From a virus: 64,000 bases of DNA. Below are positions 1,277 to 62,945 of this stretch, piece by piece (positions within the stretch are counted from its first letter, which is position 1; every line of letters begins with the position of its first letter). Location: positions 32,001 through 96,000 of IMG/VR virus record IMGVR_UViG_3300050821_010639; one strand, given 5' to 3'. Below the pieces are notes generated by a model. That model saw nothing but the letters and a program-made list of their open reading frames with translations. It searched no databases and was not told the DNA's origin. The translations under genes were made by a program, and so were the position numbers.

Positions 1277-1374
1277 ACTCCGACTCTACTCACTCTCTTG
1301 ACTAGGGTCAAGCAATAGAAATGGCTCGGCGGGGCCCCGGACGCGTCGTTCGCGCCAGGGCCCCGCCGCGTCTC

Positions 1375-2562
1375 TCAGGAAGCCTCGGGAGCTTCCCAGT
1401 CCTCGGGCAGCAGGCGGCGGCACCCGTTCCTGATGGAGCCGTCACACATGCCGCCGCCCTGGTGAACGATGAACCCGGCCAGGTCGTGCACGGTACGCAC
1501 GTCCCGCCAGGTCGAGCCGTCCAGGTTGGCGGCCTCAGCCGACACCGCGGCCAGGTCGTACATGGACACGTCGGCGACCGGAGTCTCCTCCAGGTCGGTG
1601 ACGATCCGCAGCTGCAAGTCCCTGCTGACCGGGGACAGGCGGAAATACTGCTCCATGACCGAGCCGTACTCGCCGTCCACGATGTGGTCGGGCAGCGCCC
1701 GCAGCCCGGCGAACGCCGACTCGATCCCGCCAAGGATCTCCTCAGCCGCCTCGCCGGCCCAGTTGTAGGCAGCCTGCGGCGTGGACCCGCGGCGGCTGAA
1801 CCCGGCGCCGGCACGGTCCCAGTCGACCAGGCCCGCCAGGGTCGCGAACCGGAACAGGTACCCGGACACGGTGGTCTGCTTCAGCCCGATGAGGCTGTTG
1901 CTGACCTCGATGCCGAAGCACCAGGCGTCATCCTCGGTGCCCGTCCCGATGACCACCTGCTGGGCCAGCGGGATGACGACCCGGAAGCTGGTGTGCTCCA
2001 GGTCGTGGAACAGCTTGTAGTCCACCAGCGCGCTGTCAGCGGCCTCGCTGCCCAGCTTGGCCCGGACGGCCAGCAGCACGACGTTCAGCAGCTCCACGTT
2101 GGAGAACGGCTCGACCGTGGCACGGGCCTGCGCCACGGCCAGCGGGACGTCCTCGGTGTCTCCCTCGTCGCGCCCAGTGCCGGCGACCAGCATCTTCAGC
2201 TCGATGCCGTCGCCGCTCTTCTTGCGCAGGCCCTCGGTGAGCGCCCAAGTGACGTTGGCCGACAGCATCTCGGGCGGCAGCCACTCGGCGTACTTCTGGT
2301 TGACCCGCGCCACCGAGCCGATGTGCGAGGCGCACTGGCGGGTGAGCTGGTAAACCGTGCCGTCGGGCACCGTGAGCCACGCCGACGACGGGCCGGTCAG
2401 CTCGCCGTCGGGCCACCCCTTGCCGTAGTGCATCTCGATGCCCGGCTCGCAGGTGTAGAAGGTGATGAAGTCAAGCGGCTCGGTGACCGCCAGGCGCTCC
2501 CGGGCCTCGTCCACGGTGAGCATCTGGTCGGCCGCCGGGAAGGGGACGGTGGTGAAGTCCAC
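1375..2562 (-). CDS. Divergent DUF932-like protein (~395 aa)
   Basis: GTG start after a GAGGAGG SD (track ORF extends further into recA). FGIEVSNSLIG...YLFRFATLAGLV resembles the DUF932 NS-x-x-G...R-x-x-C-x-NG core. Confidence 0.55.
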   Translation of the reverse strand: MDFTTVPFPAADQMLTVDEARERLAVTEPLDFITFYTCEPGIEMHYGKGWPDGELTGPSSAWLTVPDGTVYQLTRQCASHIGSVARVNQKYAEWLPPEMLSANVTWALTEGLRKKSGDGIELKMLVAGTGRDEGDTEDVPLAVAQARATVEPFSNVELLNVVLLAVRAKLGSEAADSALVDYKLFHDLEHTSFRVVIPLAQQVVIGTGTEDDAWCFGIEVSNSLIGLKQTTVSGYLFRFATLAGLVDWDRAGAGFSRRGSTPQAAYNWAGEAAEEILGGIESAFAGLRALPDHIVDGEYGSVMEQYFRLSPVSRDLQLRIVTDLEETPVADVSMYDLAAVSAEAANLDGSTWRDVRTVHDLAGFIVHQGGGMCDGSIRNGCRRLLPEDWEAPEAS

Positions 2563-2618
2563 CTCTTTGCCTCCTCGTGTTGGTCTGACTCCACCTACTA
2601 CGGCCGGAGCGCTTTTTA

Positions 2619-5696: not shown

Positions 5697-5709
5697 GCCG
5701 CCACGATCG

Positions 5710-13364: not shown

Positions 13365-13917
13365 ACGGAACTCCCCATTGAAGCCAACCTCACCAGTACG
13401 TAGAGGCTAGTCCTCTGCTTGACTCGCGTCAAGTTAAGCGGGGATCACCACACGGCGCTGAACTCGGTGCGGGCCCGGCTGACCGCGGCCTCGCCGACCG
13501 CGATCCGCGATCCGGGGATGTCCCGCGACCCGCTGGCGTTCGTCTCCACCAGCAGCACGCCGCGCCGGCCGAGATTGGTCGACAGCAGCGAGCGGTAAGC
13601 CACGCCGACAGGCAGCTCAAACCGGCCCCGGGTAAACGTCGCCGGGTAGCCGCGCTCGGCCACCACGCCAGTCACCTCCTCGGCGACGCGCCACTTCCGG
13701 CCGTTGCCGAACAGCTCCTGCCACTGGTTGGTCGTGCTCACGCGTGGAACCTCCGCCAGTGCCGCCGGTACGCTCGGGGCGTCCGGAACCGTGTGCCAGC
13801 CGCCCGGCCGACGCGGGGGACACCGCAGGCCGTAACGCCGCCGGGAACCTTTTCGCGCCACGGGCAGTAGACGAACGTGCCGCCGCGCACGGGCGGCGGC
13901 GCCGCAACCAGGCTCAC

Positions 13918-15660: not shown

Positions 15661-15740
15661 GTCATTCTCCTTAAGCCCTCCGCTGAGGGCATTGCTTGCT
15701 GTCTCAGGTATATAGCTTAACCCGAGTCAAGTCTATTCCG

Positions 15741-18861: not shown

Positions 18862-19679
18862 TCACGCCCCAGGGACTCGGGGATCTCCAGGATATGGGCC
18901 GGCTTGTCCGCCATGTGTCCTCCCGTGCTCGGCGAGGCGATCGGCGGTAACGACGAAGCGCCCGGCCCTGGTGCGGACGGCCAGCCCGCACCCAGCTCCG
19001 GAGCACTTCCCCTCTTTCCATATGAACGCGAACCGGCCGACCGCAGCAACGACCCTAGCGCCCTCACAGCCCGCGTGCGAGGCCAGCGGCGGGCCCCAGG
19101 TGGACACCACCCCGCACCGGCAGGCCCAGTACTCCGGGCTCGGCTCGCAGGTCTCCCGCAGCGTGATGCCGATGCTGGCCCCGCCCGCGGCCGGGCACTC
19201 GTGACGCACGACGCGCCAGAGCGGCAGCACGAACACGCCCGGCGGGTCCAGCTTGTTCAGGGCGTCGAGCAGCGCCTGCCGGGCGCTGCGGAACGCGCGC
19301 CCGGCCTGCTTCTCCTCAGCTGTCAGCGGCATCGTCAGTTGAACAGACGGTCCTTGACACCTTCGATGTAGTCCGCAGCCGCGACCGCCGCGCTCGACCC
19401 GAGCAGGCTGCCGGCCCGCTCGGGTTCCGTCAGGAAGCCGGAGGGCTCCTCGTTCTCGCTGTCCGCCTCCCCGGTCAGCGGCACCACCTTGAGGATGTCC
19501 AGGTCAGCCTCCTGGTGGTCGAACTCGCGCTTAAGGCTGTCGATGTAAGCCTCAGCATCTTCCCGCGACGTCCAGGTCAGCGGGGAGCCCTGCCCGTGCT
19601 CATCGCGCCGGTACTCCAGCTCGTAAGTCAGGGGATTCGAGCAGACCTCAACCTCTACCGCCCACAGCTCGTACCTCAT
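18862..19679 (-). other. Two hypothetical CDS (18862-19332 Cys-rich; 19335-19679 acidic)
   Basis: Closely packed ORFs with high GC3. Confidence 0.55.
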
Positions 19680-20404
19680 GCGACCACCTTCAGCATCTCA
19701 GCGTGACACTCCAGTATCACGACCTGGTGAAGCCGTGCGGCCTCATCTGGTGTTACGCCGGCGTAGGGGGCCAGCTCGGGCAGGGTCATTCCGTGGTAAT
19801 AGCGGAGCACCAGAATCACCCGCTCGCGGGCGCTCAGGCGGCCGATCGCCCCGGACATGGCGGCCAGCACCTGCGACACCACGGCCTGGCCCTCCACGTC
19901 GTCAGTCCCGGCCACGTCGTAGGGCTCGGCGTCCATGCTCACCGGGCGGGCGGAGACAGCGGCGGCGGTGGCGCGCACCTCGTCAATGCCCATCCCGGTG
20001 GCCTTCGCCAGCTCAGCGTCGGACAGCCCGCGGTCCTGCCCGGCCTCGCGCAGCATCTTCGCCTTGGTGCGGGCGCTGCGCGTCACCCAGTCCTGGCTGC
20101 GCAGGTAGTCGAGCATCGAGCCGCGCATCCGCCGCAGGGCGTAGGCGTAGAAGTACTCGAACCGCGACGGGTCGTGGCCGTGCTTGGCGCAGTAGGCAGG
20201 CCAGCGCGCCGCGGCGGCGGCCAGGCCCGACAGGGCGAGCGCCTCCAGTTCGTCTAGCTCCAGGGCGTGCGGGGCTCGCTGCCACACCCGGTAGGCCTCC
20301 GACCGGGCCGCCGGGAAGATTTCAGCGGTCAGCTCACCGATCCGCGCCCGGACCTCCTCCTCAGTCACCGAGCTGCCGCTGCGCTTGCCGGCTGGCCGGG
20401 TCAA
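19676..20404 (-). CDS. Sigma-70 family factor, FliA/WhiG-like
   Basis: FEYFYAYALRRMRGSMLDYLRSQDWVTRSAR and region 4 LSARERVILVLRYYHGMTLPELA. Start may be the GTG about 36 nt downstream. Confidence 0.88.
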   Translation of the reverse strand: MTRPAGKRSGSSVTEEEVRARIGELTAEIFPAARSEAYRVWQRAPHALELDELEALALSGLAAAAARWPAYCAKHGHDPSRFEYFYAYALRRMRGSMLDYLRSQDWVTRSARTKAKMLREAGQDRGLSDAELAKATGMGIDEVRATAAAVSARPVSMDAEPYDVAGTDDVEGQAVVSQVLAAMSGAIGRLSARERVILVLRYYHGMTLPELAPYAGVTPDEAARLHQVVILECHAEMLKVVA

Positions 20405-27664: not shown

Positions 27665-27734
27665 GAGTGTGCCCCTCCCTGTACTCGGTTGCCCTCTTGT
27701 CCCGAGTTTAGAGAGTTACTTGACCAGAGTCAAG

Positions 27735-38785: not shown

Positions 38786-38934
38786 TGGTTGCCTGCCCTT
38801 GCTAGTCGGTTGGCGTCTTGCCCTGCCCACCAGTATGCATGAACGCTTGACTTGAGTCAAGAGGATTCGGGAGACGGGAACACGACAGCGCCCCCGGGAA
38901 GCACCTTCCCGGGGGCGCTGCCAGCGCGGGGCGC

Positions 38935-41319: not shown

Positions 41320-41411
41320 GTGTGCCTCACCTGTATGAGCTGGGATGATGGTGCGAGGCTACACCCATGGCTTGACTTGAGTCAAGTGGATGCAGCCTCG
41401 CTGAAATGCTG

Positions 41412-44001
41412 TTACCTTGCCCGTGCCCTGGCCTCGCGCGCGGTCACCAGGCGAGTGCCCCGCCGCGTGCGGACCTCGTAGGTAGCGCTCTGCCAGTTGT
41501 ACGTCCCGTAGTAGCGCTTCGTCAGGAACGAGGGGAACACCTCGCGGTACCCAGCGCCGGCCGGCATCAGCTGACTTGCCCCAGCGAGGATTCGCTCCCC
41601 GTAGGCGTCCGCTATTTCCTGGGCTGTCATCCGGCCGCTGCCGTCGTAAGTCGTCATCTGCGAGCCTGCCTCACCTGTACTCGTGGGGTTGATACCGCTA
41701 GGCTACATCCATGGCTTGACTTGAGTCAAGTGGATGTAGCCTAGCGAGGTTAGATGCTCCGCAGCTCCGCAGTTGCGTCGGTCAGCAGGTCACCGCACTC
41801 GCGGCAGTACCAGCCCGGCGGCCGGAGCCACGCTGGCCGGCCGCAGTGGTAGGGCATGACCAGGCCAAGGGGCGGGCGGTCAGGGTCGTACGCCCACATC
41901 TCGCGCGCCGGCGTGTGCGTGTGGTAGTACCCGCCGGTGTCAAGGCGGACCTTGAGCGCTACGTACTCGCGGATAGTCCGCTCATACAGCCAGGTGGTCT
42001 CGCAGCGCTTCGCCGACGTCGCCTCGTTGCACAGGTCTCCCAGCCTGGCCAGGTAGGCATACGGGTTAGACATGCCCAGCCAGTTAGCGGCAGGGTCGAA
42101 GAGCGGGGCCAGGTCGACCGCGGGCCCGTAGGTCGTCCCGTCGGCGGCCACCTCGGTAAAGATGTCCTTGGACGCTGGCCCCGCCTCGTGCCCCTCGGCG
42201 TGCATCATCGGGGTACCGCACTCGGTGCACGGGGAAACGGGACGCGTGGCCAGGTGGGCGACCGCTTCGGCGTGCAGCCCGGCTAGCGTGCTCATGATGA
42301 CAGCTCAGCGTGGTACGCGCTCGCCTGCGGTCCGCGCAGCCCGTGAGCGTCGGCGAACGCCTCGGCCGCCTTGCGGTCGGGCGCGTAGACAGCGGCGGTA
42401 GTGAACATGAAGCACCGCAAGCCGCTAGCCTGGCCGTACCCGCGGAGTAGTCCCAGCGGGTTAAAGCGGGCCAGGGCGGTACCCGGCTCTTGGAAGTCCG
42501 GCCGGTCGTAGTGCGGGATACCGCACAGCTCCCTGTCGTGGCGTATGCCGTTCGCGTGCATCTCGCGCGATACCTCGCGCCTCCGGCCTTCCCAGTCCTC
42601 GCCGTCGCGCGAGGGGTCCGCGGGGTGAACATAGTAAACGGGGGCTGGCCAGTCTCGGATGCTCATGGCCTGGCCTCGAACACGGTCTCGCCCTGCACTG
42701 TCACGTGCAGAGGCACGCAGTCGCCCGCCGACCCGTACATCGCAAACGTGCCCGTCTCGGCCGTCTCCAGGTCCACCGAGACGACTAGCGCCCCGTTCCG
42801 CACGTAGGCGAAGACAAGCGCGCCGGCTACCTGCATGCACGGCTTCTCGTCCTCCTTCATAGCCGGAAGGAACGAAACGCGCTCGTTCATTACCTGCTCA
42901 CGGTTGCAGCGCTGCCATGCCTCGTAGTCAGCGAGGGTGCCGCTGTTCTCGTGCCGCCACGCGGCGTAGGTGAGGGTGGTGTCGTTCATTGGGTGCCTGC
43001 CCTTGCTTGGTTGACTGCTGGTAAGTACAGCTTAGGGCATGTCTTGACTTGAGTCAAGTAGCGATTCTTCAATGATGCGCTGCCCTTCGGTCATCTCACC
43101 CGCGGGTGAGGGGGCATGGCGCTTATCCGGGCCGGGGCTGGCGTCGCAATACCACGGGCGCGGGTCATCGCGCTTGCGCGCCCTCCAGGTGCCCGCGCTG
43201 TTGCGCCGAACAGGCTTACCGCAGTAGAGGCAGTCAGCCGTGAGGCTGCTAACCGGCCGGGTCATTACTCAGCCCTCGGGTACGGTGCAAGTCCCCACTG
43301 ATGCGCGTAGAACTGGCCGTCTCGCACGTCATACCAGCCGCTACCGCTTAGCAGGATGCGTGCGGAAACAGCCGAGGTGTCGGCCCACTGGCTACGGCAG
43401 GTCTCGCAAAGCCTCCAGTAATTGGGGTTGTCGCGCAGCGTCTCAGGAGGTAGCTGAGTCAGCTTGTCGATCATGTCGCGCGGGAGCGCTAGCGTGTCGT
43501 CATGGTGCCACAGGTCACCGGACACCCACGTCCACACCCGGCCGAACCTGTCGGTAAACGCGGGGTGCTCGGTCTCTTCGATGGCGCGCAGCTCAGCCCG
43601 TAGCGCGTGCCACTCGGCGAGCATCCCGCGGACCACGCGCACGCCCCCGGCTGCCTGCTCTTGCTCGCTCATGTCCACAGCTCAGCTCCCACACATACAG
43701 GCTTGAGCGTCAGGAACAACGCGGTTGCGGGCTGTCCGGCCCCCACGCCGTACAGGCGGATAGTGCCGTCATCGTCCACTTGTACCTGCGAGGCATTCGG
43801 CCACGCGAACGTCGGCCACTCCGCCGACACGACGTCACCAGACGGCAGGACGTAGCCAAGGTAAACAGACGAGCCGGTCACCTTGGCTACCTTGCGTCGG
43901 GTGGTGCCGTAAGCGGGATGGTCGGGACGCGTGATGTAGTGGTTCGTCACGTCATATACCTGGCCCGGCTGCACCAGGCGCTTAACTGCCGTGAGCGTCA
44001 T
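41412..44001 (-). other. Cassette hypothetical CDS (41412-41657, 41750-42295, 42292-42666, 42663-42989, 43032-43265, 43265-43678, 43669-44001)
   Basis: Coupled ORFs behind palindrome promoters at 41715, 43043 and 44050. Confidence 0.6.
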
Positions 44002-44116
44002 TTTTCCCTTGCCCTTCGTTCGGTTGCCTGGTCTCAACATAGTGCATGGCTTGACTTGAGTCAAGACAACGGCCGGCCCCGCCCCGGCGATTACCACGGG
44101 GCGGGGCCGGCCGTGC

Positions 44117-44716: not shown

Positions 44717-44761
44717 GATGGTGTGCCTGCCCTTCAGTTAACGGTGCCTGGTGGTGCGGGG

Positions 44762-47700
44762 TTACTCGCTCAGCGCGCCGGTGCGCGGGTCAGCCGTGAC
44801 CACGGTCAGGCTGTCGTGCCCAACCCGGGCGTAGCTGTCCCCGGCGCCGCCGAGCCGGGCCACGTTGACCCGCAGGCCCTTGTCAGTGAGGACCACGGCC
44901 AGGTCGCCGTCAGCGATCCCGCCCAGCGGCCGGCCCTTGATCGACACCCGTACCAGGGTCCCGCACGCCAGGTGAGCGGGCGTGCCCTTCGCGGCCATGG
45001 CGACGGCCTCGGGAAACTCGGCCGGCAGCACCCTGCGCACCTCGATGGGCATGAGCCCGTCTTCGGTCCTGACGGTAGCGAGGACGTGCGCGCCGTGCTT
45101 CTCGAATTCGGTCACGGGCCCGGTGTGCACGCGACCGATCTTGTCCGTGAACGTCACGCTGTCGCCTACGTGGAAGACGTGGAGCCCGTGACGCGGAAAC
45201 TTGATTCGTGCCTCGGTGACGGGCGCTTCGCCCTCACCGAGCAGCGCCCGGTACTTCGCGCTTGCCTCGGCCGGGGTGTCCCCGTCCCGCCTCGTGCTGT
45301 CTGACATGGTGCCTGCCCTCTACTCGTTCGGATCGTGCTTACGATGGCCAGCATAGTGCGCACCTTGACTTGAGTCAAGACAGCAGTCAGCCCGGTAGCT
45401 GTCGTAGCTACCGGGCTGACTCAGGCTGTTGACGTGCCTGCCCTACTTGCCGTGCCTCGGCTCGTAGCCGGGCTTGCCCTCCGGCTTCTCCTCGCCCTCG
45501 TGGTTTCCGCGCATGTGCTCACCTCCCCCCGCTGAGTCGTACCCGTGAGCGCTGCGCCCGGCAGCGCTAGCCCAGTGCGACAGCTGCCGCGTCGCTAGCC
45601 ACGTCTAGCGCCTCGCTGTAGTCGATAGACTTGACCGCCTGCGCGACCTCTTCGTCGGTGAGCTTGCGCCCGGCGATGCGCTGCAAGTGCCCGCGGGTGA
45701 TACTCCACGCCTCGCGGTCATCCTCCAGCTCAGCCAGCTCATCGCGGGTAAGCCCGCAGACCCGCCAGGCCTCCACCTCTAGGCGGATGTCCGCGTACTC
45801 GTCGGGGTGCGGCGCGCGCACGCAGCCGGACAGCACGCGCTCTAGCTCCTCGTCAGTCGGCTCGTCCTCGCTGCCGTTGACGAACTGCATGGCGTACTTC
45901 ACGCGGCGCGCAGTCAGCGCGGTTGCCCTGGTCATATAGTGCCTGCCCTTCAGTTGGTTTCGTCGCCAGTAGGCGCGTAGGGGTCGTACTGCCATTCGCG
46001 CGGCTGCTCGCTGTCGGCCACCCGCAGCTTCAGCGCCTGTCCTGCGCAGGACAGGCGCGCCCGCTCGATGTAGGCAGGCAGGCTCGGGTCGACGTTCGCC
46101 CACAGCTCGGCACTGTCTGCGTCCACCAGCTCAGCCGGCTTCACGTAGGGGGCCGCCTCGCGCATTGACCGCGCGTCCGCCTGCCAGGTCCACCACTGCA
46201 CGGCGTACCCCCAGGTCTCCACGCGGTACCAGGCATCGCCCCCGGCCGCGACCACCAGGACCCGCGTCCCGCCCTCGTACGACACGTACGGGCTGGAGAC
46301 GACAGCTCCGTCAGGAAGCGTGCTCATTGGCGCACCTGACGCGACGCCTCGGTAACAACAGCCTGAGCCGCTTCACAGATTTCCCGTAGCTTGTCCTGCG
46401 AGTAACTACCGGGGCACTCCCGCATGTCCAGGGTGATTGCCTTCAGTGCTGCCAGGGCCGCCGCGGGCTGGTACGCCGGGACGAACCACTCGCCGTCGGC
46501 GCCCAGTACCCGGATCTGTACTTGCAGCTGCTCACCTAGCTTGCTCATGACGTGCCTGCCCTTCGTTCGGTTGCCTGGTGCCAACAGTACCCTACGTACT
46601 TGACTCAAGTCAAGACATGAGTAAGGCGGTCAGCCGTTTCCAGCTGACCGCCTTGTCCCTACCGAACTCGCTTGCCCCGCAGGTCTGCCGCGTACGCGCG
46701 GCGGGTGCGCCGGCTGTAGCCGGTCTTGATGAGACCCCGCCGGCCGTGGTTCCAGCGGTGCGCCGTGTGCAGCCGGCTGAACGCGTCAACCTCGTCGGCT
46801 CCGCGGGTGGGGCGGGGGTGCATCTTCTCAACGTCCATGGGTGCCTGCCCTTCGCTGTGGTGTTGTGCTTACCAGCATAGGTCAGGGCTTGACTTGAGTC
46901 AAGACAGCAGAGCACCCCGGCTGTCCTGGCTAAGGCTGCCGGGGTGCTCTGTAACATCTAGTAGTTTGCCGTCAATCCATAAGCACCACCTCTGTCCGCA
47001 GGGTCGTACCTGAGTTGGCACGAGTCAAGAGGGACCGCCTTCGACGCACACAGCCCGGCCATGTCTAGCTGAGCGAGTGCGCGCCGCGCTGCCGGGTCAT
47101 CAGCAGTGCTCATGGTGCCGGCACCTCACTGGCAAGAATGAACGCGTAGCCGCCGGCGATGGCTGCGAAGCGGACACGGAGCACGCGCATCAAAGCCTCG
47201 AACCCGTGCGCCACGTCGGTGGCCTTGTGCCCGTGGTAGGGGTTGACGCTGCCGAACCAGGACGGGTCCAGCCGCGCGCACTCGTTCACGCCGTGCCAGC
47301 TCAGCACGTAGACGTCACTCGCCGACTGGCCCAGGCCGTTGCGGGCGGCGCCGTCAAACTCCACGGTCAGCTTCAGCCCGTGCGGCCCGGCCAGGTAGAC
47401 CGCAGTCCGCCTGGTACCGGGCTGCTCGGACTTGTGCTCAGCGGTCAGCCCGTGCTCACGGGCCAGGTCAACTACCTGCCGGGCCATCTCGGCGCGCTCG
47501 GCCTTGCGCCGCGAGGTCAGCGCAGCCGCGCGCGCCCGCAGGGCCGTGTCACCGCAGGCCCAGCAGCCTCGCGGGCTGCGGGCGTGCACGGTCTCAGCAT
47601 GGCCGCACACCTCGCACGACCGCAGGTGCGGGTGGAGGGCCGTCAGCGAGCGGTGCGCGCCCGAGACGCAGGGGACCGCGCGGCGGCTGGCCGCCGCGCG

Positions 47701-50700
47701 GTCCGGGAGAGGGGAGTCAGGCACTGTAGCCACGCCCGGCCACCAGGGCGAGCGTGCACGGCTCGGCGGGCTCGGTCACCGCGGGGACGTACTCCTGTAC
47801 CTGGCCCTCCACCTTGTCGGTGTAGTGCGCCGGCGCGATGACGTGAGTGACCTCAGCCTGTACCAGGGCTGAAACGCGACCGCTCGCGTGGCGGCGGAAC
47901 AGCATGCGCACGTCACCAAAATGGTGGTCGTCGGCAAGCGGGGCGCCCGACGTGTACGACAGCCAGTCCAGCTCATCGGCCATCAGGCCCGCGTGCGTGC
48001 CGTCAGCCAGCTGGTACATCGCCCACAGCCCGGCCTCGTCTCGCGTGTAGACGGGCATCCCGGCCACGCGCACGGGGATACCGGGCTGGTAGCTTTCCCT
48101 GGCCATGTCGGCCATGAAGTTCTCCATCGACGGCGGCTGAGCCGGGATGCCGGCCTCCTGGCCTGTCGCGGGGCGGACGCTGCCGTTCACCTCGTAGGCG
48201 CCCGGCTCAGCCGGGTTCAGGTTGAACTTGCCCAGTAGCGGGGCGACGCGCGACGCGCGAGTCACCCAGTAACGGTTGGTCGCCCACATCTCGCCGGCGT
48301 ACTCGCCCACGAACAATCCGGCGGGGCCGTACTTGGTGCTGTACCCGCGCATGACGCGCTTCTTGATTTCGGTGAAGCTGTTGGGGTCCATCGTGTGCCT
48401 GCCCTTCGGTTGCCTGCTTACAGGTCCAGCTTAAGGCATCACTTGACTCAAGTCAAGTAGCCCTACGCTTGCCTGCCAGCTCTGCGCGCAACGAGTGATC
48501 ATGAGTGCAGCTCCGGGCAGTCGCCGACGTGCGGCCGGTAGCCGGCCCCATAGCTCTAGCGAGTCCTGCTCAGGAACCGGGTCAACGCAGATCGAGCGGA
48601 ATGAGTTCTCGGTAAAGATCAGCTTCTCCGCCCGCAGCAGCACCCACACCGGCCAGTGCGACCCGTAGCGCAGGTCGGTGTGCCTGTCGTGCTCGCGGTC
48701 ATCGAGCGAGAGCGGGCAGTACGCGAACCAGGACCAGGCGCCCGCCACGGTGCAGTGCGCCCGGTAGGTGCGCCGCAGCTCGGTACAGGGAGGCAGGTCC
48801 GCACCTGCCTCCCTCAGCCGCTTGAGCAGGCGCTCGATCTTGGTCACAGCGACGCGGGAGCTGCCGCGTGCGGCAGCTCGGTCAGGAACTCGGCCGGGTA
48901 GTGAGCGCCGCAGCCGCAGAAGACCCCGCCGCAGCCGCAGCGGTCCGGGCCGCCCTCGGGGCGCGCGCCGTGCGGCGCGTGCTCGGTGCAGAACGCCTCT
49001 TCGGCTTGCGCGTGCTCAGGGCGGCCGGCGTCGTATCCGCGCCAAACGACCCCTACCCACTTGCGCTCTACGGTCAGCCCGTCAGCGGTACGGCTCATGA
49101 TGTGCCCCTCTCGGTTGCCTGCTCCGAGTCTAGGGCATGGCTTGACTCAAGTCAAGAAGTCTGGTGATGTCCCCTGGTGTGCACGTCCACCGCGATGTCG
49201 CCCAGCACGTTGCCGGCGTGCCCGAGCAGCTGCAAGAGCACCGCCGCGAACACCGACACGCAGGGCCGGCAGACCCGCGGCATCCTCGGCTGGCCGTCAG
49301 GCGTCATCACCGGGACGTGCAGCGCGGGCGAGTCCTGGTCGCCGCACAGCGCGCACGCCAGCCCGGGAACCATCATGACCTCGGTCTTGCGGTCGGTCAC
49401 GGCCAGCCCTTCCACTCAGTGGCGATGCTGAGCCTGGCGGCGCCCCTCAGCAGGATGGCCGAGCGCTCCCGGCTGCGCGCGGGCAGGTCCACGTAAGCGA
49501 ACAGCCGAGCGCGGGCCGCCGCCACCAGGCGGACCAGGCCGAGCACGTGCGCCGCGTCCCGGCTGTCCTGCTCGGACATCACCCAGTCGCCCGCGCTGGT
49601 GCCTGACGCCTCGCGCAACAGGCGGGCGAACAGCACCCGGTCGTTGTCGCCCTGGCCGTCGCGCAGCTCTCTCAGCAGGCCCTCGCCGTCGGTACCGTCG
49701 TTCATTTTTCTTAACCCCCCACAGGTCAGGGCGGGTGCCGGCCGGCACCCGCCCTTTACTTCCTACGCCGTGCGGTGGTCACCGCGCAGCTTGTTCCGCC
49801 TCAGCCGGCACCACCTGCCAGTAACCATCGGCGTAACCGACCAGGAAAACAGGGCTTCCGGTGACGCTAGCTGACTGAAACCGCTCCGGCCCCAGGCGCG
49901 GGTACTCCTGCGCCCGGCTCACGACCGCCACCACGTGGCCGCGCTGCCGGCGAGTCTGCTCAGCCAGGTACGCTACGGCCTCGCTCCTCGTGAGCCTGCC
50001 CTCGGCACGGCGCTTCTCGTCCGGACCGCGGTACCGCTGCCGGTCAGCTGCTGTCAGGGCCTCCTGCTGCGCAGCCAGGGCGTCATCGAGCGCGCCCTTG
50101 AACGCGGTCACGTCGGTCACGGCGACCTTGCGGATAGGGTCGGCGGGACCGGTCCCGCCGACCAGCAGGACGACGCACTGAGAGCCGTCCGTGGCCACAA
50201 CCAGCTCCGGGGTGAGCTGACGGCCGAACGTGCCCTTTCCCGGCTCAGCCAGCGCGACCTCGGTCACCAGCGACGCCGGCGTGCGCCCGTAGGCACCCGC
50301 GCCAAGGAACTGGTACCCGATGAAGATCCGGTCCGGGTAGTTGTCCAGGTTCAGGAACCAGCCGTCCTGATGCGGCTCAGCGTCGGTGATGACGCCGGTG
50401 TGCTCCGCGTGCAGCGTGCGCGGCCCGCAAGTCGCCTTGATGTAGCGGCGGACCGTCACCCGGTCCCCCGGCCGGGGCTCGTAGGCCCCGGCCTCGCTCT
50501 GCTGAATGCTCACTGGACACCGCCGCGCAGCTCGTTCGCCTTGGCCCGGCACAGGTCCGCCAGCTGGTCAAGCTCAGCGGCGTTCAGGTAGATGTGCTGG
50601 GAGGTGGTGACGCACTCGGGGTTGAGCGTCAGCCGCACCTGGCCGCCGATCTCGGCCCGGCGGACCGCGATGGTCGACTCGTCTTCGGTCACGATGTCGG

Positions 50701-50755: not shown

Positions 50756-50874
50756 CGGGTGCCTGCCCTTCGCTCGGTTGCTGATAGCTCCACTGTAGTG
50801 CATGGCTTGACTTGAGTCAAGAACGTAACGCAGCCCCGAACGGGTGACACGCCCGGGGGCCTCGCGCACTCTCG

Positions 50875-51417: not shown

Positions 51418-51570
51418 GTGCCTACCTCTCGTTCGTGCCTGCATGACGGAGCCCCCGCGGGTCGCGCTTCGTCCGCGGGGGCTCCTGCCCGCCTTCTCTT
51501 CCTTGGCTCATCGGCCGACCCCTTGGCGGTTTCAGGGGCACCGCCCTAGGAACGGTGCGGAAGCTTGTTG

Positions 51571-52050: not shown

Positions 52051-52159
52051 TCGTGCCTGCCCTTCATCGGAGCTTGTGGTTCAAGGGTACCCGATAGCTT
52101 GACTTGAGTCAAGACATAAACGAGGCGCGCACCCGGGGAAGGTGCGCGCCTCGCGGGGC

Positions 52160-55100
52160 CTACTCAGCCGCAAGCAGCTCCGGCCGGAAGGCAGCGCGGA
52201 CCTTGGCGTCCAGCGCCTCCCACAGCTCAGGGGTGAGCATGAGGTCGGTCAGCCCCAGGTCCAGGCGCACCGCGCCCGAGCGGTCGCCCACGACGCCGAT
52301 CCGGCGCCCGTAGGTGTCGAAAACCTCTCCGCCCTTGGTGTCGTTCATGTGCCTGCCCTTCAGCCGGGGATTCTTGCCTACCCCTCAACTGTACTGCTCA
52401 GCTTGACTTGAGTCAAGTCTATCGGCTGGATCTTCCCTTGGTCCTCGTCGCCCTGGCCGCGCCACGCTCAGCCCGGCTGGTCACGACCGACACCACGCGC
52501 CGGGCCAGGTCCGCCGCGGGCTCCGCGCGGCTCACGTCCACGCGCACGCCCTTCGACCAGGCCACAGCCTCAAGGTCCGAGCGCCGCAGGCCAGCCAGGC
52601 GCTCAGTCGCCCGGTCCTTGCCCACAAGGCGGATAGCGGCTAGTACCTCGTCGTCTGTCATGGCGTGCCTGACCTTTGCTTGACTGCTGTTAAGCATCAG
52701 GCTAGGCCAGGCTCTTGACTCGTGTCAAGACATGACGAGAGGCCTTGCGGACGGGGGCACCGCAAGGCCTCTCGGGGAATTACGCGGGCGCCTGGGGCGG
52801 GCGCCGCGCCTCCAGTATCACACAGGTCTGCGGTGACGGCCAGCCGGCTGCCAGTCCACCTCGCTGCCGGCCACCAGGGCCTCCCCGACGTAGACCGCGG
52901 CCGGCGTGTCCCCGGCCAGGTGAACCTTCACCACGAGCACGCCGTCCTCATTCAGCTCCGCGCAGACCTTGGAGCCCTCGACGTCCAGGCAGGGGCGCGG
53001 TTCGCCAGCCTCGCTCACGGCCTGCACCGCATCGGCTGACTCGGTAGCGGCGTTCATGGCGCTCTCCCCTCTCGGGTTACCCCGGGGTAACCCTAACCGG
53101 TCCGCTTGACTTACGTAAAGCGAAACGGGCCAACATGATGGCGGAAAGTGGGGGAAACTGGGCACTTGCTGGTCCAGGCGTCATCGTCCCAGGTGAGCCG
53201 CGGGCACGAGCAGTCCTCTCCCGGGCGCATCGGGCAATAGCACCCGGTCCCCGGGTGCTCCTTCCAGCCGGGACGCCGGTCTGCCCTCGGCACCAGCGAC
53301 CGCAGCCGCTCGCCGTCGACCACCAGGCGCGCACCGCAGTAGCGGCAGGGCAGCAGCTCCGGGTCCGGCTCGCCCGCCATCGCCTCGCACGGGCTGAGTC
53401 CCGCGCTGTGCACCCAGTAGCCCCAGATCCCCTGCCAGAACATGTCACGGTGGTGAGCCAGGCAGCAGGCCAGCGTCCCGGCCCAGGGCCCGCGCGGGGT
53501 GTACGCCCGCGCGGCCTCAGCCTCGGCCTGGGATACCCGGTCGTACCCGGTCACCGGCGCGGCCACCAGAGCAGAACCAGCCCGATGACCGAGAGCGCCA
53601 GAGTAGCCGTGCCGGCGACCGCAGCCGGCTTGTACGGCGCCCACAGACCAGTCGTCAGCGCCAGCAGCCAGATGACGACCCCGAGCCAGTTGGTCCGGCT
53701 CACGGGTAACCGCACCTCCGGCCAGGTCGCGTAGCTCCGGCCGCGCACCGAGCCGTCCGGCCTGGTAGCCGCCGCGTTGGCGAACAGGTGCCCGTGCTCG
53801 CGCCACCAGGAGGTAAGCGCCGCGTACTCGGACGCGTCCCAGGCCAGCATCGCGGCGCGCGCGGCCAGGGCGTCCGCTGACGGCCCGCGCAGGCGGCCTA
53901 GCGCCTCCTTGCGCCTGCGCTGGTACTCCGCCTGCTGCGCCCGGCGGTAGCGCTCACGGACGACGGAGCGACGCTGAGGGTGGCAGTAGTCCGGCAACGG
54001 CGTGCCGACGGCCCGGACCAGTACCCGGCTCGCGTACCACTCCCTCGGCTTCCGCACCCAGGCAAATTTAGCGCTCAGGGCAGTACAGGGCTGCCCCTTG
54101 ACCGCCTTGCACTCCGGGCAGTCTTCCGTCTGCCCCTGCTCGGTGGTGATGGGGCCGCCGACGTCGTGCGCGTCAGAGTAGATCACCGGGCTCACCGCGT
54201 CTCCAGCCAGGTCGCCGGCCACCAGGACGCGCAGCCGTCGTCCAGCTCCACGAACACGCTCGCGCCGTCAAGGCTGATGAACCAGGGCACCAGGCCCGGC
54301 TGCGGTACCCACCGGGCGTAGCTCTCCGGCTCGCCAGCGGCCACGGCCCCGCGCTGGCCGCGCCGCCAGTAAACCCGCCGACCGAGCCATACCGGCGTGC
54401 CGGGCTGGAACCGCTGCTCAAGGGCCGGCAGCAGGTCACGGGTAAACGGGCCCTCCTCCCAGCCGCCCAGCTCAGCGACCGCCGCGGAGAGGTCCGCAGC
54501 CTCGGCCTGGTCGAAGCCGGACGACGCCACCTCGCGCCTCTGGTAGACCGTCACCACGGCCAGCGTGCCGGTCATGACTTGCCCGGCGTGGCCTGAACCA
54601 CCTGGTCAACGGTCACCGTGACCGCCTTGCTCCCGCGCAGCAGCCGTAGCTTGTTCGGCTTGCGCGGCACCCGGGGGTCAGGACTCTGCTCCACCGAGAT
54701 GGTGCGGATGACCTGCCACCTCCTGAGCTGGTAGATCACCTCATCGTTGACCGCGATGCGGCCGGGCGCCCCGCTCACGCGTACTCCTCAGTGCACCGGC
54801 CGGCCCGGTGCTGGTACCCGGCCCAGAACTCGCCGTCAATGAGCGCGGCAGTAGCCCAGGCCGGGGAGCCGGCAGGGATCTCGCCGTTGCAGTCGGTGCA
54901 ACGGTGCGCCTTACGCGTCGCCTGCACCTGACGGCGACTCAGGGCGACGAACGTGATTTCCGGCTCGGGGCGACAACAGGTGTCGTAACAGTGCATTTAG
55001 TCCTCCTCGCACGGGTAGCAGATGACGCACGTGCGCATGACGTCCCCGGGCCGGCAGCCCCCCTCGGGGTACCGTGCGCGGTGCAAGGCCGCGCCCTCCT

Positions 55101-55850: not shown

Positions 55851-55916
55851 GTGCCTGCCCTTCGGTTGGTTGCCTGGTTACAGGGTAGCCTAATGCTTGA
55901 CTTGAGTCAAGACACG

Positions 55917-56465: not shown

Positions 56466-57057
56466 ATTCAAAGGATAAGGGATCGACTTGACTCGTGTCA
56501 AGTGATCTCCGGTATTTCCTCTCCGCCAGGCTGACCAGGGCCGGAGCCGGGCCGGTAACGCGCTCCTGGGGCCCGCGCTCGCGCTGCCACGCCACGGCCA
56601 GGCCCAGCCGGGCCCGCCAAGCGAGCGCGGACACCGCGTTGGGGCTCATGCCGGAGGTTCGCGCCAGCTCGGCCGGCGTGCGCCCCTCCACCTCGGTCTG
56701 CCACAGCACCGCGCGCCAGCGGGGCGGCAGCGAGTCGAACGCGCGACGGGTCATCCGCTGCTCCTCGGCCGCGGTCGCCAGGTCCCCGGCGCCCGGCACG
56801 CGCACCATGCGAGGATCGAGCGGCACGGGGTCGATGCGCCTGCGCTCGGCCAGCCAGTCGCGTGCCAGGTTGCGCACCGCGGCCAGCAGGTAGGGCCGGA
56901 ACGCGCCGTCGGGGCCGTGGCCGGCCCGCTGCCTGGCCAGCACCCGGGTGAACGCCTCCGCCACGATGTCATCGGCCGCGTGCGCGGGCACCAGGGCCAG
57001 GGCCACGCGGCGCGCGGCGCTCCGGTGCTCGGCGTACAGGTCGGCGAACTCGGGCAT
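56263..57057 (-). CDS. ECF-type sigma-70 factor
   Basis: FADLYAEH, ADDIVAEAFTRV, AFRPYLLAAVRN, LPPRWRAVLW...SPNAVSALAWRAR. The last ~90 aa run into the putative ncRNA. Confidence 0.88.
   Translation of the reverse strand: MPEFADLYAEHRSAARRVALALVPAHAADDIVAEAFTRVLARQRAGHGPDGAFRPYLLAAVRNLARDWLAERRRIDPVPLDPRMVRVPGAGDLATAAEEQRMTRRAFDSLPPRWRAVLWQTEVEGRTPAELARTSGMSPNAVSALAWRARLGLAVAWQRERGPQERVTGPAPALVSLAERKYRRSLDTSQVDPLSFECERGRKVSEQARGGPARSAQKGSSTGYSASRSPSRPGPHSQGQGKPDITQQRLPGPGRVPGERVSLT
56472..56502 (-). promoter_or_regulatory. Promoter of the putative ncRNA
   Basis: TTGACA within the palindrome, 18-nt spacer, TATCCT. Confidence 0.75.
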
Positions 57058-59544: not shown

Positions 59545-62348
59545 CTAACCACCGTGCTTCGCCTGGTTGTGCTCCCGGGCCCGATTGATAACGACGTCCA
59601 GACTCGGGTGGTAACCGATCTCGAAGTAAGCCCGGAGGTTCGCTGCTGCGCACTTGTGGCAGTGCAGTGCGGTCGTGCCCCGGTCAGGAATGACGGTGAA
59701 CTGGCCGCTGAACTCCGACAGCGGCAGCCCTGCGGGCTCGCGGATGTCATCGACGCCGTGCCAGTACATCCGCTCCGCCACCCGCCAAAGCAGGTCATAC
59801 AGGTTGTCACCACTGATGGTGACGTTCTCAGCCGTCGTGAGCGGCCGGTCCTCGTCGTCGTACTCGGTGTCACGGATGCGCGGGTCCACCTCGTTGTCGA
59901 CCAGCCAGCGCTTCAGCCGCGCCATGGTCGACTCGCCTTGCGGGTAGTCGCGGTCATCAGCCGCGCGGGCCTGCTCGCGCTCGCTCGGCCGGGTGTCCTG
60001 GTCAAGCAGGAACGGCACGCCGCGCGTCATGTAGTGGCGGAAAAACTGGTCCCAGCCGTCGTGCGCAGTGTCGCTCCACACCTCCCGGCCGTCGACCTCA
60101 ACGGCGATGCCGTCGGTCCCCTCGTCCCAGGTGATGAACTTGATCGTCTTCAACGTGCCCGCCCCTCGTCGCCTGTGCCTGCTTGCGGGTCAGCTAGCCC
60201 CGCAGCCGCGGGGCTGCGCCCCCAGGCCTCCCGGGCCGCGTCGTTCCCGTAAATGACGTGAAACACCTGGTCCTTGCGCCGTCGCCGTTCGGTCTTGTCG
60301 GGAGCGGCACTGATGTACGCCGCTGCCTTGCGGTACGCGGCGTCACTCGCCTCGCTCATGAGCCCGCCCTTCTAGTTGCGCGCGCAGTCCGGCCAGCCGG
60401 ACGCGCCTACCCCTGTTACGTGCTGGCCCGCCGGGCAGAACACGGTGGGCGGGGTGAAGATCGCGGGCACGGCGTCGTGGTGCCTCAGGTGCCCGGCCAC
60501 GGTAGCGGCGATCATGAAAAAGGCGACCCCCGCGACCACGGTCACCAGGGCAATCACCACAGCCGACCTCATGACTCGCCTTCAATCACCAGGTCGTTGT
60601 CGGTCTGGTCGGCGCCGAAGCGCGGGATGCCCGGCTCAGCGCCGGACCCGATGATGACGCCGTTGGCCGCGCGCCGCTCGCCAGGCCGCAGTTCGATGTT
60701 CAGGGTCTTGTCTCCCGGTGCCTGTGTCACGGCCACAGCTTACGCAGTGTCTTGACTAGAGTCAAGTAATCAGACATTTTCGGCGGGCCGCCGACCGTCC
60801 GCAGCCAGAGGAAGACGCCAGCCGCGCCGTTCGCGAACCCGAAGGCCACAATGCCGAACGGGAGCCACCAGCCCTCCAGGCCGGTCCAGAGCATGAGCCA
60901 GAAGCCGACGCTCATGCTGAAAAAGCACATGATGACCCAGGGGTGGCGCTGCACGGGGTTCATCCGAGAGTCCCCTCACCGCTAGCGAAGATGCCGTCCG
61001 CGGCCTCGCGCACGGTGGACAGCGTGAAGTCGTGCGCCGGGAGCACGCCGGTCAGGAACCGCGCTGCCACGTCAAGCGGGTCAGGCTCCGCCGGCGGGTC
61101 CGGCAGCTCGGGCGCGTCCAGCTCGGGCCACCACTCGGCCACGCTGCTGCCGTCCTCCCACCAGGTGACCTCTTCCGAGCGCTGCACCTCCACGGAGGCG
61201 CCGAGCCACGTCAGCATCAGAGCCCGGCTGTACGCGCCCGACGCTGACAGGTACAGGTGGTTGCGCGGCCAGCGGAACCCCCGCTTGCGCAGCGCGTTGC
61301 GCCGCTTGCGGTCCTTGACCGCGGCGAGCACCTGGGGCCAGGCCTCCGGTACCCACCCGGGCTCACCTGACCCGGGCGGGTAGAGGACGTTCAGCCGGTA
61401 GACGTGGACAGGGCGCTCAGGCATCGTCCGCACCCGCCAGCAGCTCAGGCTCCAGCGACCAGAACAGGACGGTGACCGGCTCGCCGGGGGCGATGCCCAG
61501 GTGCTGCTGGACTACGGCCAGGGCCGACTTGAAGGCTGAGGCGCGCGTCTTCGCCCGGCCAGCCTGCTCAGCGGTCATGGTGCCCTCAACCGTCTGCGCA
61601 GTGAGTGTGCCGAAGCCCAGCTTGTTCCACTGCACGGTCATGACCCAGAACCAGTTCACCGGTCCGCGCCCCCGTCGGTGATGGCGCGGGTGATCGCGTC
61701 CGGCTCAAGGCCGGCCCGCTCGGCCATCCGGGTAACCATGGCCTCAAGGTCGTTGCGGGACTGCTCCACCACGGTCTCGGCGTGCTCGTCCAGCTTCCTG
61801 GTCGCGAACTCCACGTTGGGCACGGCGTTGGCGATGGCGGCCCGCAAGTCGGACAGCCGGGCCTTCCGCTCTGCGGCCGGAGCCGGGGGCTTGGCGTTCA
61901 GCGCAGCCTCGTAAGCAGCCTCAGCAGTCTGGATCTTGGCAAACGCGTCGTGCGCTGCAGCCCGCACCTCGTCGTGGGTGAGCGAGAACCGGGGAGCGGG
62001 GCGGAGGCCAGGCCGGTCGCCCGGCTCCTGCGTGCCGGTCGCGGTCCACTCGATCGTGCAGGGAACGCCGTCGCCCTGGCCGGTACTGGCCACGAACGAG
62101 GCGAACTGCGCCATCGACAGGCTGATTTCGCAGACCATCCGCTCCTGGTACACGCGGTCAGTGTGCAGGTCGCGCTTGCGGGTAGCCTCGTGGACCGTGA
62201 CCCGCATGTACTCCGGGTGCCGGACATCGGACTGGAACAGCACCGCACCCGGGGTAGAGCTGATCCGGTGAAGGCTGACCAGCCCGAACGCCGGGTGGGT
62301 TTCGTCCCCGTTCTCGCCGGTCGTGGAGTCCTCGTACTGCTTAGGCAT
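59545..62348 (-). other. Hypothetical CDS run (59545-60153, 60150-60359, 60372-60572, 60727-60963, 60960-61433, 61417-61659, 61656-62348)
   Basis: Coupled ORFs, two of them small membrane proteins. Confidence 0.55.
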
Positions 62349-62859
62349 TTCCCTCTCCTCTCTTAGTCAGCGGGTACTCGCGGCGGTAGCCGAGCAGCGC
62401 CTCCAGCGGGTAGCGCGCGCCGCGTGCCTTGCGCGCCGCGGTCAGCGCCTCCTGTGCCGCGGCCACCCGGCGCTGAGCGTCAGCGAGGTCCGCCGCCGCC
62501 TCGTCGCGCGCATGCTCAGCAGCCACCAGGCCGGTCACGTCCGCCTCTTCCTCGATCCTGGCCACCAGGGCCAGGCCCTCGTCCGTCAGCCCGTAGTACG
62601 AGCGGGTGTGCAGCGTCCGCTTGCTGGCCAGGCGGCGCTTGTGGAGCCCGCGCGCGGTCCTGTCCAGGTCGGCGATGCCGCGCAGGTTGCCGACCTCGCC
62701 GCCCAGCATCAGGCCGTCGGACACCAGGTCGGTGATGGTGAACATCGTGTGGTGCCCGCTCGGGCACGCGGCGGTCGGCTCGCGCCGGCGCGCGGTCGCG
62801 TCGCGCAGCCCCACGAGAACGACGATGGCGCTCTCGCTCAGGGTCTCGATCTCTGCCAT
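62341..62859 (-). CDS. Winged-helix-like protein with a C-terminal coiled coil
   Basis: RTARGLHKRRLAS...YYGLTDEGLA, PadR/MarR-like wing. Confidence 0.55.
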   Translation of the reverse strand: MAEIETLSESAIVVLVGLRDATARRREPTAACPSGHHTMFTITDLVSDGLMLGGEVGNLRGIADLDRTARGLHKRRLASKRTLHTRSYYGLTDEGLALVARIEEEADVTGLVAAEHARDEAAADLADAQRRVAAAQEALTAARKARGARYPLEALLGYRREYPLTKRGEGNA

Positions 62860-62945
62860 CGGGTGCCTGCCCTCTGCTCGGAAGTGCTTACGACACCAGG
62901 CTACCGGATGACTTGACTTGAGTCAAGAGAGTGAGGATATTCCGC

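Follow-up and report, generated by a model that had tools for sequence, protein, structure and literature searches.

Cluster O mycobacteriophages carry more than 30 copies of a 17-bp palindrome, TGTTCGG-N3-CCGAACA, together with strongly predicted SigA-like promoters (Cresawn et al. 2015, PMC4351075). Here we analyse the palindrome CTTGAC-N4-GTCAAG in a 64-kb window (bases 32001-96000) of the IMG/VR record IMGVR_UViG_3300050821_010639, which appears to come from an uncultured, lytic-looking actinophage; coordinates given to the base are those of this window unless marked as genome positions. As in Cluster O, an actinophage here has ~30 short palindromes with invariant arms and a variable centre, and SigA-like promoters are predicted in the same genomes. 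The Cluster O palindromes, however, are separate from the promoters, many are intragenic and they follow no orientation rule (PMC4351075), whereas each copy described here is fused to a -35 or -10 box, oriented with transcription and intergenic, and the two sequences are unrelated.

Cluster K mycobacteriophages have a 13-bp start-associated sequence (SAS, GGGATAGGAGCCC) just upstream of start codons, and an extended form (ESAS) made of two imperfect 17-bp repeats with a 4-13-bp spacer (Pope et al. 2011, PMC3203893). The likeness to our window is that repeats stand before non-structural genes and that a motif at the start codon (GGGATAGGAGCCC there, AAGGGCAGGCAC here) is preceded by an inverted repeat. 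The ESAS, however, comes without a promoter assignment, whereas the repeat in our window is a perfect 6-N4-6 or 7-N2-7 palindrome in fixed register with the -35 and -10 hexamers. The window does not belong with the Cluster K elements: the palindromes are unrelated in sequence to the ESAS and have perfect arms of 6-7 bp around a fixed spacer, and AAGGGCAGGCAC is analogous to the SAS yet unrelated to it. The promoter early stem-loop (PeSL) cassettes of T4-type phages hold small non-essential genes, each following a terminator stem-loop and a strong sigma-70-like promoter, with high gene flux (Arbiol et al. 2010, PMC2839356). The sites described here share with them a sigma-70-like promoter after a terminator stem-loop (at 11 of 30 sites) and a mosaic gene content, but PeSL cassettes have no palindromic operator inside the promoter.

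The repressor sites and stoperators of the Cluster A phages L5 and Bxb1 were reportedly treated by Brown et al. in 1997. One repressor serves ~25-30 genome-wide sites in these phages, one of them overlapping the early promoter, according to a later summary (PMC13313380). Stoperators are asymmetric 13-14-mers in one orientation, within and between genes, that block elongation in temperate phages, whereas the sites in our window are palindromic and confined to promoters and thus do not qualify as stoperators. The operators of lambdoid early promoters overlap the -35 and -10 hexamers, and TetR-type operators are 15-16-bp palindromes, with few operators at one or two promoters in each case. The arrangement proposed here resembles these in that a dimeric helix-turn-helix (HTH) repressor would occlude RNA polymerase at a palindrome lying over promoter hexamers, and differs in that it involves ~30 dispersed promoters, at which the half-site doubles as the -35 hexamer or, after a single base change, as the -10 hexamer.

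FNR/CRP-family boxes have the form TTGAT-N4-ATCAA and are centred at -41.5 or -61.5. A first examination of the window from its letters alone (hereafter the sequence-only reading) had likened the palindromes to such boxes, and the geometry bears this out, since both are 5-N4-5 inverted repeats and TTGAC is one base from TTGAT. The likeness goes no further: the half-site is TTGAC and not TTGAT, TTGAC/GTCAA is invariable and the FNR/CRP consensus is not matched, conserved flanks (C1, T7, A10 and G16) extend the site to 7-N2-7, the centre lies at about -28.5 and not -41.5, and a Pfam scan that covered ~138 of the ~185 predicted phage proteins yielded no CRP/FNR protein among the matches listed. 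What differs from the published systems is the fusion of operator and promoter hexamer, the perfect palindrome in fixed register, the -10 variant and the scale.

The source record comprises 152,046 bp at 69.6% G+C, is 100% complete according to CheckV and holds 0 ambiguous bases. Nearly all genes lie on the minus strand, only three lie on the plus strand, and 35 tRNA genes are located at 3.3-8.5 kb. A nucleotide-level search of GenBank phages returned no match to the record. The phage RecA (2619-3638) shares up to 72% identity with RecA proteins of Actinomycetota, and among isolates the closest DNA polymerase is that of Microbacterium phage Magritte (34% identity). From these relationships we take the host to be an actinobacterium. 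Among the Pfam matches listed for the ~138 proteins there was no integrase. By an exact-word scan of IMG/VR we identified six related records of 77-151 kb, which together with this phage make up seven genomes (G000-G006, G000 being this phage). Proteins of the relatives are ~50-90% identical to those of this phage; gene order is largely colinear with insertions and deletions, and the early region is mosaic, shaped by gains and losses of genes and by a few transpositions, despite which the promoter cassettes stay alike across the relatives.

We identified exactly 25 perfect copies of CTTGAC-N4-GTCAAG in the window, compared to 0 in 100 dinucleotide-preserving shuffles, and 42 sites with at most two mismatches, compared to 1.55 expected. 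The sequence-only reading had counted at least 25, from 1297 to 62927, and each lies where it had placed them. The whole record contains 30 perfect sites, and the six relatives contain 22, 13, 27, 23, 21 and 5, for a seven-genome total of 141; the 77-kb relative fragment has 11 copies of the TTGAC-N4-GTCAA core. All window sites face one way, on the gene (minus) strand, and every site inspected was intergenic, upstream of a gene and fused to a -35 or -10 box. All 25 perfect window sites provide a TTGACN -35 hexamer, and in 24 of them TAnnnT starts 8-9 nt past the palindrome, which gives a spacer of 17-18 bp and agrees with the earlier claim that such a hexamer follows in nearly every case; the sole exception is the site at 38846, with CATACT instead. 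The -10 hexamers quoted earlier for the sites at 1297, 27719, 35939, 43043, 44050, 48442, 60751 and 62912 were all correct (Table 1). A generic sigma-70 consensus scan of positions 36001-56000 gave 11 matches, all of them on the minus strand with TTGACT and a 17-bp spacer, compared to 1.1 expected. Across the seven genomes, 135 of the 141 perfect sites have TAnnnT at a spacer of 16-18 bp on the gene strand, and 3 of these have it on the other strand as well. The sites are thus predicted to be promoters of the principal sigma factor (SigA/HrdB type), which is part of the explanation that we consider probable below.

The logo over the 141 sites reads t-n-(g/t) CTTGAC T C n A GTCAAG C c a t nnnn T A n n c T (g/t) G. 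T occupies position 7 in 105 of the 141 sites (giving TTGACT) and A occupies position 10 in 127, so that the symmetric unit is 7-N2-7, CTTGACT-NN-AGTCAAG. Information content is close to nil at position 9 and at positions 21-24 and preferences are weak at positions 17-20, whereas the 12 arm positions are invariant in these sites, across genomes whose proteins differ as much as stated above. Taking positions 25-30 as the -10 hexamer, the unit reaches from about -36 to about -21 and its centre, at about -28.5, lies 1.5 bp downstream of the -35 hexamer. Sites of this class are absent from the structural region (genome 100-152 kb).

The two halves of the palindrome appear to be about equally constrained. 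When sites were chosen by TTGAC, 17-19 nt and TAnnnT, blind to the distal half, 190 matches were found on the gene strand of the seven genomes vs. 8 on the opposite strand, and the distal half of those 190 was a perfect GTCAAG in 141, had one mismatch in 28 and two mismatches in 8. Conversely, GTCAAG-N7-9-TAnnnT gave 153 matches, of which 133 had a perfect CTTGAC and 19 had one mismatch. Of the nine one-mismatch sites in the window, 6 depart from the palindrome in the -35 half and 3 in the distal half. This split, together with the selections in both directions, indicates a constraint on the distal half no weaker than that on the -35 half. The palindrome thus has dyad symmetry with both halves under selection. 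The second half-site had earlier been called fixed; it is strongly conserved, but the 3 window sites with a defective distal half show that it is not absolutely so.

Two of the nine one-mismatch window sites (29555-29570 and 35494-35509) belong to a second class, CTAGAC-N4-GTCAAG, of which the seven genomes have 14 copies oriented with the gene strand and 3 oriented the opposite way; CTAGAC ties with GTTAAG for the commonest single-base variant. The TAGACT of these class-2 sites occupies the -10 position, and in nine of the 14 a hexamer of TTGAC or TTGTC type lies 17-18 bp further upstream (chance of a match of at least 4/6, ~7%). Tandem pairs of a -35 copy and a -10 copy, 23 bp apart from centre to centre, occur in four promoters: one in the window at 35494-35532 and one each in G003, G005 and G002. 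The window site at 29555-29570 serves as the -10 copy in a promoter that is also present in G001, G004 and G005, and the other five of the 14 represent one orthologous site in the structural region, without a -35. Use of the 16-bp unit in two registers relative to RNA polymerase fits a protein-binding operator rather than an extension of the -35, and the two registers and the tandem pairs show that the unit works apart from the promoter element it overlaps. The design is economical, as CTTGACT supplies a -35 and CTAGACT a -10. Beyond the window, at genome 145789-145804, the sole palindrome-type site of the structural module, CTAGACTCCAGTCAAG, stands just before a small open reading frame (ORF); it is kept in five genomes and has no -35 upstream.

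Comparison with phages outside these seven genomes shows how the site varies. TTGAC-N4-GTCAA was not found in G412 (141 kb, 61.5% G+C, DNA polymerase 39% identical), in G413 (46% G+C, DNA polymerase 40% identical) or in Microbacterium phage Magritte. In G412, ~10 promoters instead read GTTGAC-N4-GGCAAC with TAnnnT 8-9 nt further on, that is, the same architecture with the outer pair altered on both sides (C1/G16 to G1/C16). This form fits a site that would serve both sigma, through its left half, and another reader, through both halves. G413 has dozens of CTTGACA-type promoters without a distal half, and because these are plain, promoter function as such does not require a distal half, as the sequence-only reading had maintained. 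The regulatory 'standard part' may be older than the clade and evolve through half-site change.

The promoters lie within a recurrent setting. Upstream of 11 of the 30 genome sites there is a strong terminator-like hairpin (minimum free energy at most -30 kcal/mol) that ends 2-6 nt before the palindrome, and the consensus scan of 36001-56000 likewise showed three terminator-like hairpins that end just before sites. Downstream of 17 of the 30 sites there is GGGCAGGCA, part of the full leader motif AAGGGCAGGCAC, which stands 0-5 nt before the start codon (for example at 62862-62874 and 52053-52065); within the window, 17 of the 25 perfect sites have this leader, and GGGCAGGCAC occurs 21 times in the genome. 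Given this placement, the predicted leaders are only ~25-38 nt long. G412 has AGGAGGCAGC ahead of start codons, at the position of the leader motif. The gene strand directly upstream of the site at 55896 (window 55917-56502) reads CGGTTGCCTGCCCTGCC, the complement of the leader motif.

Taken together, the conservation of the distal half at the level of the -35 half, the re-use of the unit over the -10, the diverged half-sites of G412 and the plain promoters of G413 support a built-in operator. The core of the sequence-only reading, housekeeping-sigma promoters that each contain an operator of one dimeric regulator, is thereby retained as the best explanation on comparative evidence, though it is borne out in part only. 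We consider it probable that these are early and middle promoters of the host sigma factor, each embedded in a 16-bp operator of a dimeric protein that is most likely encoded by the phage. Under this explanation, holoenzyme with the host principal sigma (SigA/HrdB type) would fire ~30 strong promoters (TTGACT, 17-18 bp, TAnnnT) and so transcribe the replication genes, the tRNA array, a Ro/Y-RNA unit and the small genes that make up the mosaic array at genome 68-100 kb. The phage dimer would build up from one of these same promoters and bind the CTTGACT-NN-AGTCAAG operators, occluding the -35 and the spacer and, at class-2 sites, the -10 and the start site, so that one protein would shut off or feedback-limit ~30 transcription units together; a sigma-28-like phage factor would then redirect polymerase to the late structural genes. 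We infer the transcription starts, the protein binding, the sign of regulation and the identity of the binder from the genomes compared. Three points weigh against the explanation: repression rather than activation is read from the position of the site only; the palindrome centre is asymmetric, with C at position 8 in 104 of the 141 sites; and the distal half in G412 is near to, yet consistently not, an exact mirror of the -35 half, which is unexpected under a simple homodimer model.

If this explanation is true, the phage has a compact, portable, single-input switch, in which one small protein and a 16-bp site that doubles as a consensus -35 (or -10) govern ~30 transcription units. Such a switch would explain how early and middle genes are shut off in a large lytic-looking actinophage when its own sigma takes over, would yield a collection of strong promoters that can be repressed, for use in high-GC actinobacteria, and would give the palindrome families of Cluster O and Cluster K mycobacteriophages, so far unexplained, a model open to testing.

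The position of the palindrome at about -30 is also that of the MotA box of phage T4, and the site might accordingly be an activator site, the promoters being of a middle class that needs a phage dimer or an appropriation of sigma of the MotA/AsiA type. Actinobacterial promoters often lack a -35, so that a conserved box at this place could be the site of a factor, and the palindromic promoters are predicted to drive replication genes and tRNAs and not small early genes alone. However, a perfect TTGAC -35 at the optimal 17-bp spacing needs no activator, a protein bound to the class-2 copies over the -10 and the start would block transcription, and if all promoters depended on a phage protein nothing would start the programme, unless that protein were injected; we regard activation as unlikely. 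The dimer might instead be a host factor, TetR-, FNR/CRP- or HspR-like, that ties the phage programme to a host signal. The half-site of the HspR-associated inverted repeat (HAIR) is CTTGAGT, one base from CTTGACT, and the 5-N4-5 core has the geometry of an FNR box; yet HAIR half-sites are spaced by N7 and those described here by N2. Perfect copies of the palindrome do adjoin TetR-family genes in actinobacterial chromosomes: recurring chromosomal copies are intergenic and lie beside such genes in 3 of 5 loci examined, and actinobacterial dimeric HTH repressors probably use a sequence of this type as operator. The TetR neighbours, however, belong to different subfamilies and are different local paralogues, and only 41 of 401 sampled Actinomycetota genomes contain a perfect palindrome (at most 4 in any one), roughly as many as in the reversed control. 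A host regulon tapped by the phage was therefore rejected for want of enrichment in this sample, and as the distribution of the motif also matches that of clade-specific phage regulators, we hold a host reader to be very unlikely. In the actinobacterial chromosomes L186, L187 and L196, the perfect sites that adjoin TetR-family genes, in one setting with a P450 gene, in one with an acyl-CoA-ligase-type gene and in one with a pair of sites in tandem, are presumably operators of local TetR proteins.

A further reading dispenses with a dedicated regulator. The terminator, palindromic promoter and leader might form a mobile cassette, homogenised by recombination or gene conversion and serving as a crossover point for the shuffling of early genes, or the distal half might tune promoter strength. 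The likeness of the cassettes within a region of gene flux, the terminator hairpins ahead of many sites and the precedent of the PeSL cassettes (PMC2839356) speak for this, but homogenisation would keep the flanks too, whereas flanks and centre vary around the 12 invariant arm positions, and the unit is re-used at the -10 in another promoter context. We give the cassette reading a low probability as a substitute for regulation, although recombination and regulation are not mutually exclusive. That the palindrome is a nucleic-acid hairpin, in read-through RNA (for processing or termination) or in single-stranded DNA, is highly improbable. A 6-bp stem with a 4-nt loop is possible and lies just after terminator hairpins, but this stem is short, the arms are invariant in sequence and not merely in pairing, with no compensatory variation in the clade, the position is locked to the -10 box and not to the upstream hairpin, and the predicted start lies downstream, so that the promoter's own transcripts would not contain the palindrome.

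We next consider which protein might read the operator proposed here. The sequence-only reading had named three ORFs as possible regulators, of which one (62341-62859) holds up as a predicted winged-helix protein conserved in the clade. The ORF at 15283-15660 was rejected, as it has no family match and no detectable DNA-binding family, and the ORF at 38516-38785 was rejected as a shared regulator, as its HTH match in PHROG is weak (E 0.004) and no relative has an orthologue. Among the Pfam matches listed for the ~138 proteins there was no CRP/FNR (cNMP-binding plus HTH_Crp), TetR, LuxR or Xre family. A CopG-type ribbon-helix-helix protein (genome 14069-14461) is present in G000 and G004 only and thus is not conserved, and nothing points to DNA binding by an 89-aa CCHC protein (13918-14187, minus strand), which is common to G412 too; the latter has invariant C7, C10, H22 and C26 and a conserved acidic C-terminus (DPLED).

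An AlphaFold2 model of the protein encoded at 62341-62859, built with six orthologues (predicted local distance difference test score 83, predicted template modelling score 0.69), shows helices, a two-strand wing and a 39-residue C-terminal helix. Its top Foldseek matches are Sso10a-2, MarR-family proteins (AdcR, BpsR), PadR-like proteins, TubR and ArsR/SmtB, at a probability of ~1.0, and a structure search of the ESM Atlas gave PadR and MarR neighbours (template modelling score 0.56 to a PadR cluster). The family comprises 22 homologues, all on contigs of this phage clade, one of which is labelled 'MarR family' by the Joint Genome Institute (JGI). A hidden Markov model of the family found it in 6 of the 7 genomes, the seventh contig being incomplete at that region, and found no homologue in G412 or G413. 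A palindromic promoter immediately precedes the gene in G000, G001, G004, G002 and in L201, a metagenome contig of 74% G+C, and in G003 and G006 the gene is second in a palindrome-promoter cassette, so that as the regulator it would be autoregulated from a palindromic promoter. Residues A69, R70 and L72 of the presumed recognition helix are invariant in 14 sequences. On the model and these comparisons we tentatively name it as the best candidate for the regulator of the palindrome. The case is weakened by several observations: the Foldseek E-values are weak (~1e-2); there is no Pfam or PHROG match at E ≤0.01; first place in a palindrome cassette discriminates weakly when ~30 cassettes exist; no covariation ties a protein to the motif, as the arms are invariant wherever the winged-helix protein occurs; the lack of a detectable homologue extends to G412, with its related promoter architecture; and a GntR/HutC regulator shares the phyletic distribution of the motif. 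It is conceivable, though doubtful, that the whole pre-late programme runs through one operator whose half-site is a promoter hexamer, with a clade-specific winged-helix/coiled-coil repressor competing with host sigma for the same bases, and operator and promoter thus forced to co-evolve, as GTTGAC/GGCAAC in G412 suggests.

The GntR/HutC regulator (genome 105222-105959, plus strand, beyond the window) is encoded by one of the three plus-strand genes and is present in 7 of 7 genomes. It was demoted as a reader of the palindrome, since its recognition helix varies (SQGVAQR, APTVAQQ, SPHVAQQ, GQQAAQH) and the palindrome arms do not, and since its own upstream region has a different conserved repeat, CTGTAC-N8-GTACAG. 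It probably acts as a local regulator of the divergent operon that starts with an Xis-like HTH protein. This module (L157:8788-9959, genome 104788-105959) has an operon for a 93-aa Xis/MerR-like HTH protein, a DUF2637-like protein and a 671-aa protein, divergent from the GntR/HutC gene, and conserved repeats CTGTAC-N8-GTACAG and GGAATC-N5-GATTCC in the intergenic region; we take it to resemble the kil-kor/tra control modules of actinomycete conjugative elements.

The phage sigma factor (Table 1) is kept in all relatives, including G412 and the 46% G+C G413. We rejected it as a reader of the TTGACT/TAnnnT promoters, for which it is unlikely because it is closest to FliA/sigma-28/WhiG, and judge it from this relationship to be a probable late sigma. 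An exact k-mer search for a late-promoter motif returned only the leader motif and tRNA T-loops.

Table 1. Predicted promoter-operator sites and related genes in the 64-kb window, in order of position
Feature	Position	Strand	Sequence	-10 hexamer	Remarks
Putative promoter-operator	1297..1312	-	CTTGACCCTAGTCAAG (gene strand)	TAGAGT (1283-1288)	
Putative promoter-operator	13418..13433	-	CTTGACGCGAGTCAAG	TAGCCT (13404-13409)	upstream of 360-aa gene 12198-13280
One-mismatch site	15716..15731	-	CTTGACTCGGGTTAAG	no TAnnnT at canonical spacing	upstream of ORF 15283-15660
Phage sigma factor	19676..20368	-			sigma-70 family, regions 2 and 4; group-3; nearest solved relatives FliA/sigma-28/WhiG
Putative promoter-operator	27719..27734	-	CTTGACTCTGGTCAAG	TAAACT (27705-27710)	upstream of TraG/TrwB-like gene 25734-27500
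Putative class-2 operator	29555..29570	-	CTAGACTCTGGTCAAG	TAGACT (within site)	-35 TTGACG 17 bp upstream
One-mismatch putative promoter-operator	31755..31770	-	CTTGACTCAAGTCAAA	TACGCT	
One-mismatch putative promoter-operator	35090..35105	-	CTTGTCTTGAGTCAAG	TAGGTT	
Tandem pair	35494..35532	-	CTTGTCTGCGGTCAAG; CTAGACTCGTGTCAAG		CTTGTCTGCGGTCAAG over -35 (35517-35532); class-2 CTAGACTCGTGTCAAG over -10 (35494-35509)
Putative promoter-operator	35939..35954	-	CTTGACTCCAGTCAAG	TACATT	
Putative promoter-operator	36473..36488	-	CTTGACTCGTGTCAAG	TATCCT	leader GGGCAGGCA
One-mismatch putative promoter-operator	37333..37348	-	CTTGACTCAAGACAAG	TATCCT	
Putative promoter-operator	37831..37846	-	CTTGACTCAAGTCAAG	TATCGT	leader
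Putative promoter-operator	38188..38203	-		TATCGT	terminator hairpin, 16-bp stem, 38209-38245, directly upstream
Putative promoter-operator	38846..38861	-		CATACT	
Putative promoter-operator	41371..41386	-		TAGCCT	18-bp spacer; upstream of 402-aa gene
Putative promoter-operator	41715..41730	-		TAGCCT	18-bp spacer
Putative promoter-operator	43043..43058	-		TAAGCT	leader
Putative promoter-operator	44050..44065	-		TATGTT	hairpin upstream
Putative promoter-operator	45364..45379	-		TATGCT	leader
Putative promoter-operator	46599..46614	-	centre TTGA (gene strand)	TACTGT	
Putative promoter-operator	46888..46903	-		TATGCT	leader
Putative promoter-operator	48442..48457	-	centre TTGA	TAAGCT	leader
Putative promoter-operator	49141..49156	-	centre TTGA	TAGACT	
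Putative promoter-operator	50806..50821	-		TACAGT	leader
Putative promoter-operator	52098..52113	-		TACCCT	leader; terminator hairpin 52120-52154 upstream; predicted to drive SWIM-finger gene 51571-52050
Putative promoter-operator	52402..52417	-		TACAGT	leader
One-mismatch site	52679..52694	-	CTTAACAGCAGTCAAG		35 bp from site 52714
Putative promoter-operator	52714..52729	-	CTTGACACGAGTCAAG	TAGCCT	
One-mismatch site	53105..53120	-	CTTTACGTAAGTCAAG		TAGGGT downstream
Putative promoter-operator	55896..55911	-		TACCCT	leader
Putative promoter-operator	56487..56502	-	CTTGACACGAGTCAAG	TATCCT	~550 nt downstream without called ORF
Putative promoter-operator	60751..60766	-	CTTGACTCTAGTCAAG	TAAGCT	
Winged-helix protein, 172 aa	62341..62859	-			long C-terminal helix; candidate palindrome-binding regulator
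Putative promoter-operator	62912..62927	-		TAGCCT	directly upstream of winged-helix gene; leader GGGCAGGCAC; ATG 62859

Several genes behind or near these sites are of interest in their own right. A homologue of TraG/TrwB-type coupling proteins (25734-27500, minus strand) and a DUF932 protein (38935-40002, minus strand) are both encoded behind palindromic promoters; proteins of these types are more usual in conjugative elements. SWIM-type zinc-finger signatures (CxC...CxH) occur in two small proteins (51571-52050 and 14744-14983, both on the minus strand), the former of which is kept in 6 of 6 relatives. Adjoining the structural genes, a DivIVA-domain protein is encoded on the plus strand at L157:12195-12815 (genome 108195-108815). 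Another of the three plus-strand genes (20642-21025) encodes a full-length homologue of the ribosomal protein bL12 (L7/L12), with a match to Pfam Ribosomal_L12 at 2e-24 and an N-terminal dimerisation domain, and this gene is kept in G001 and G004.

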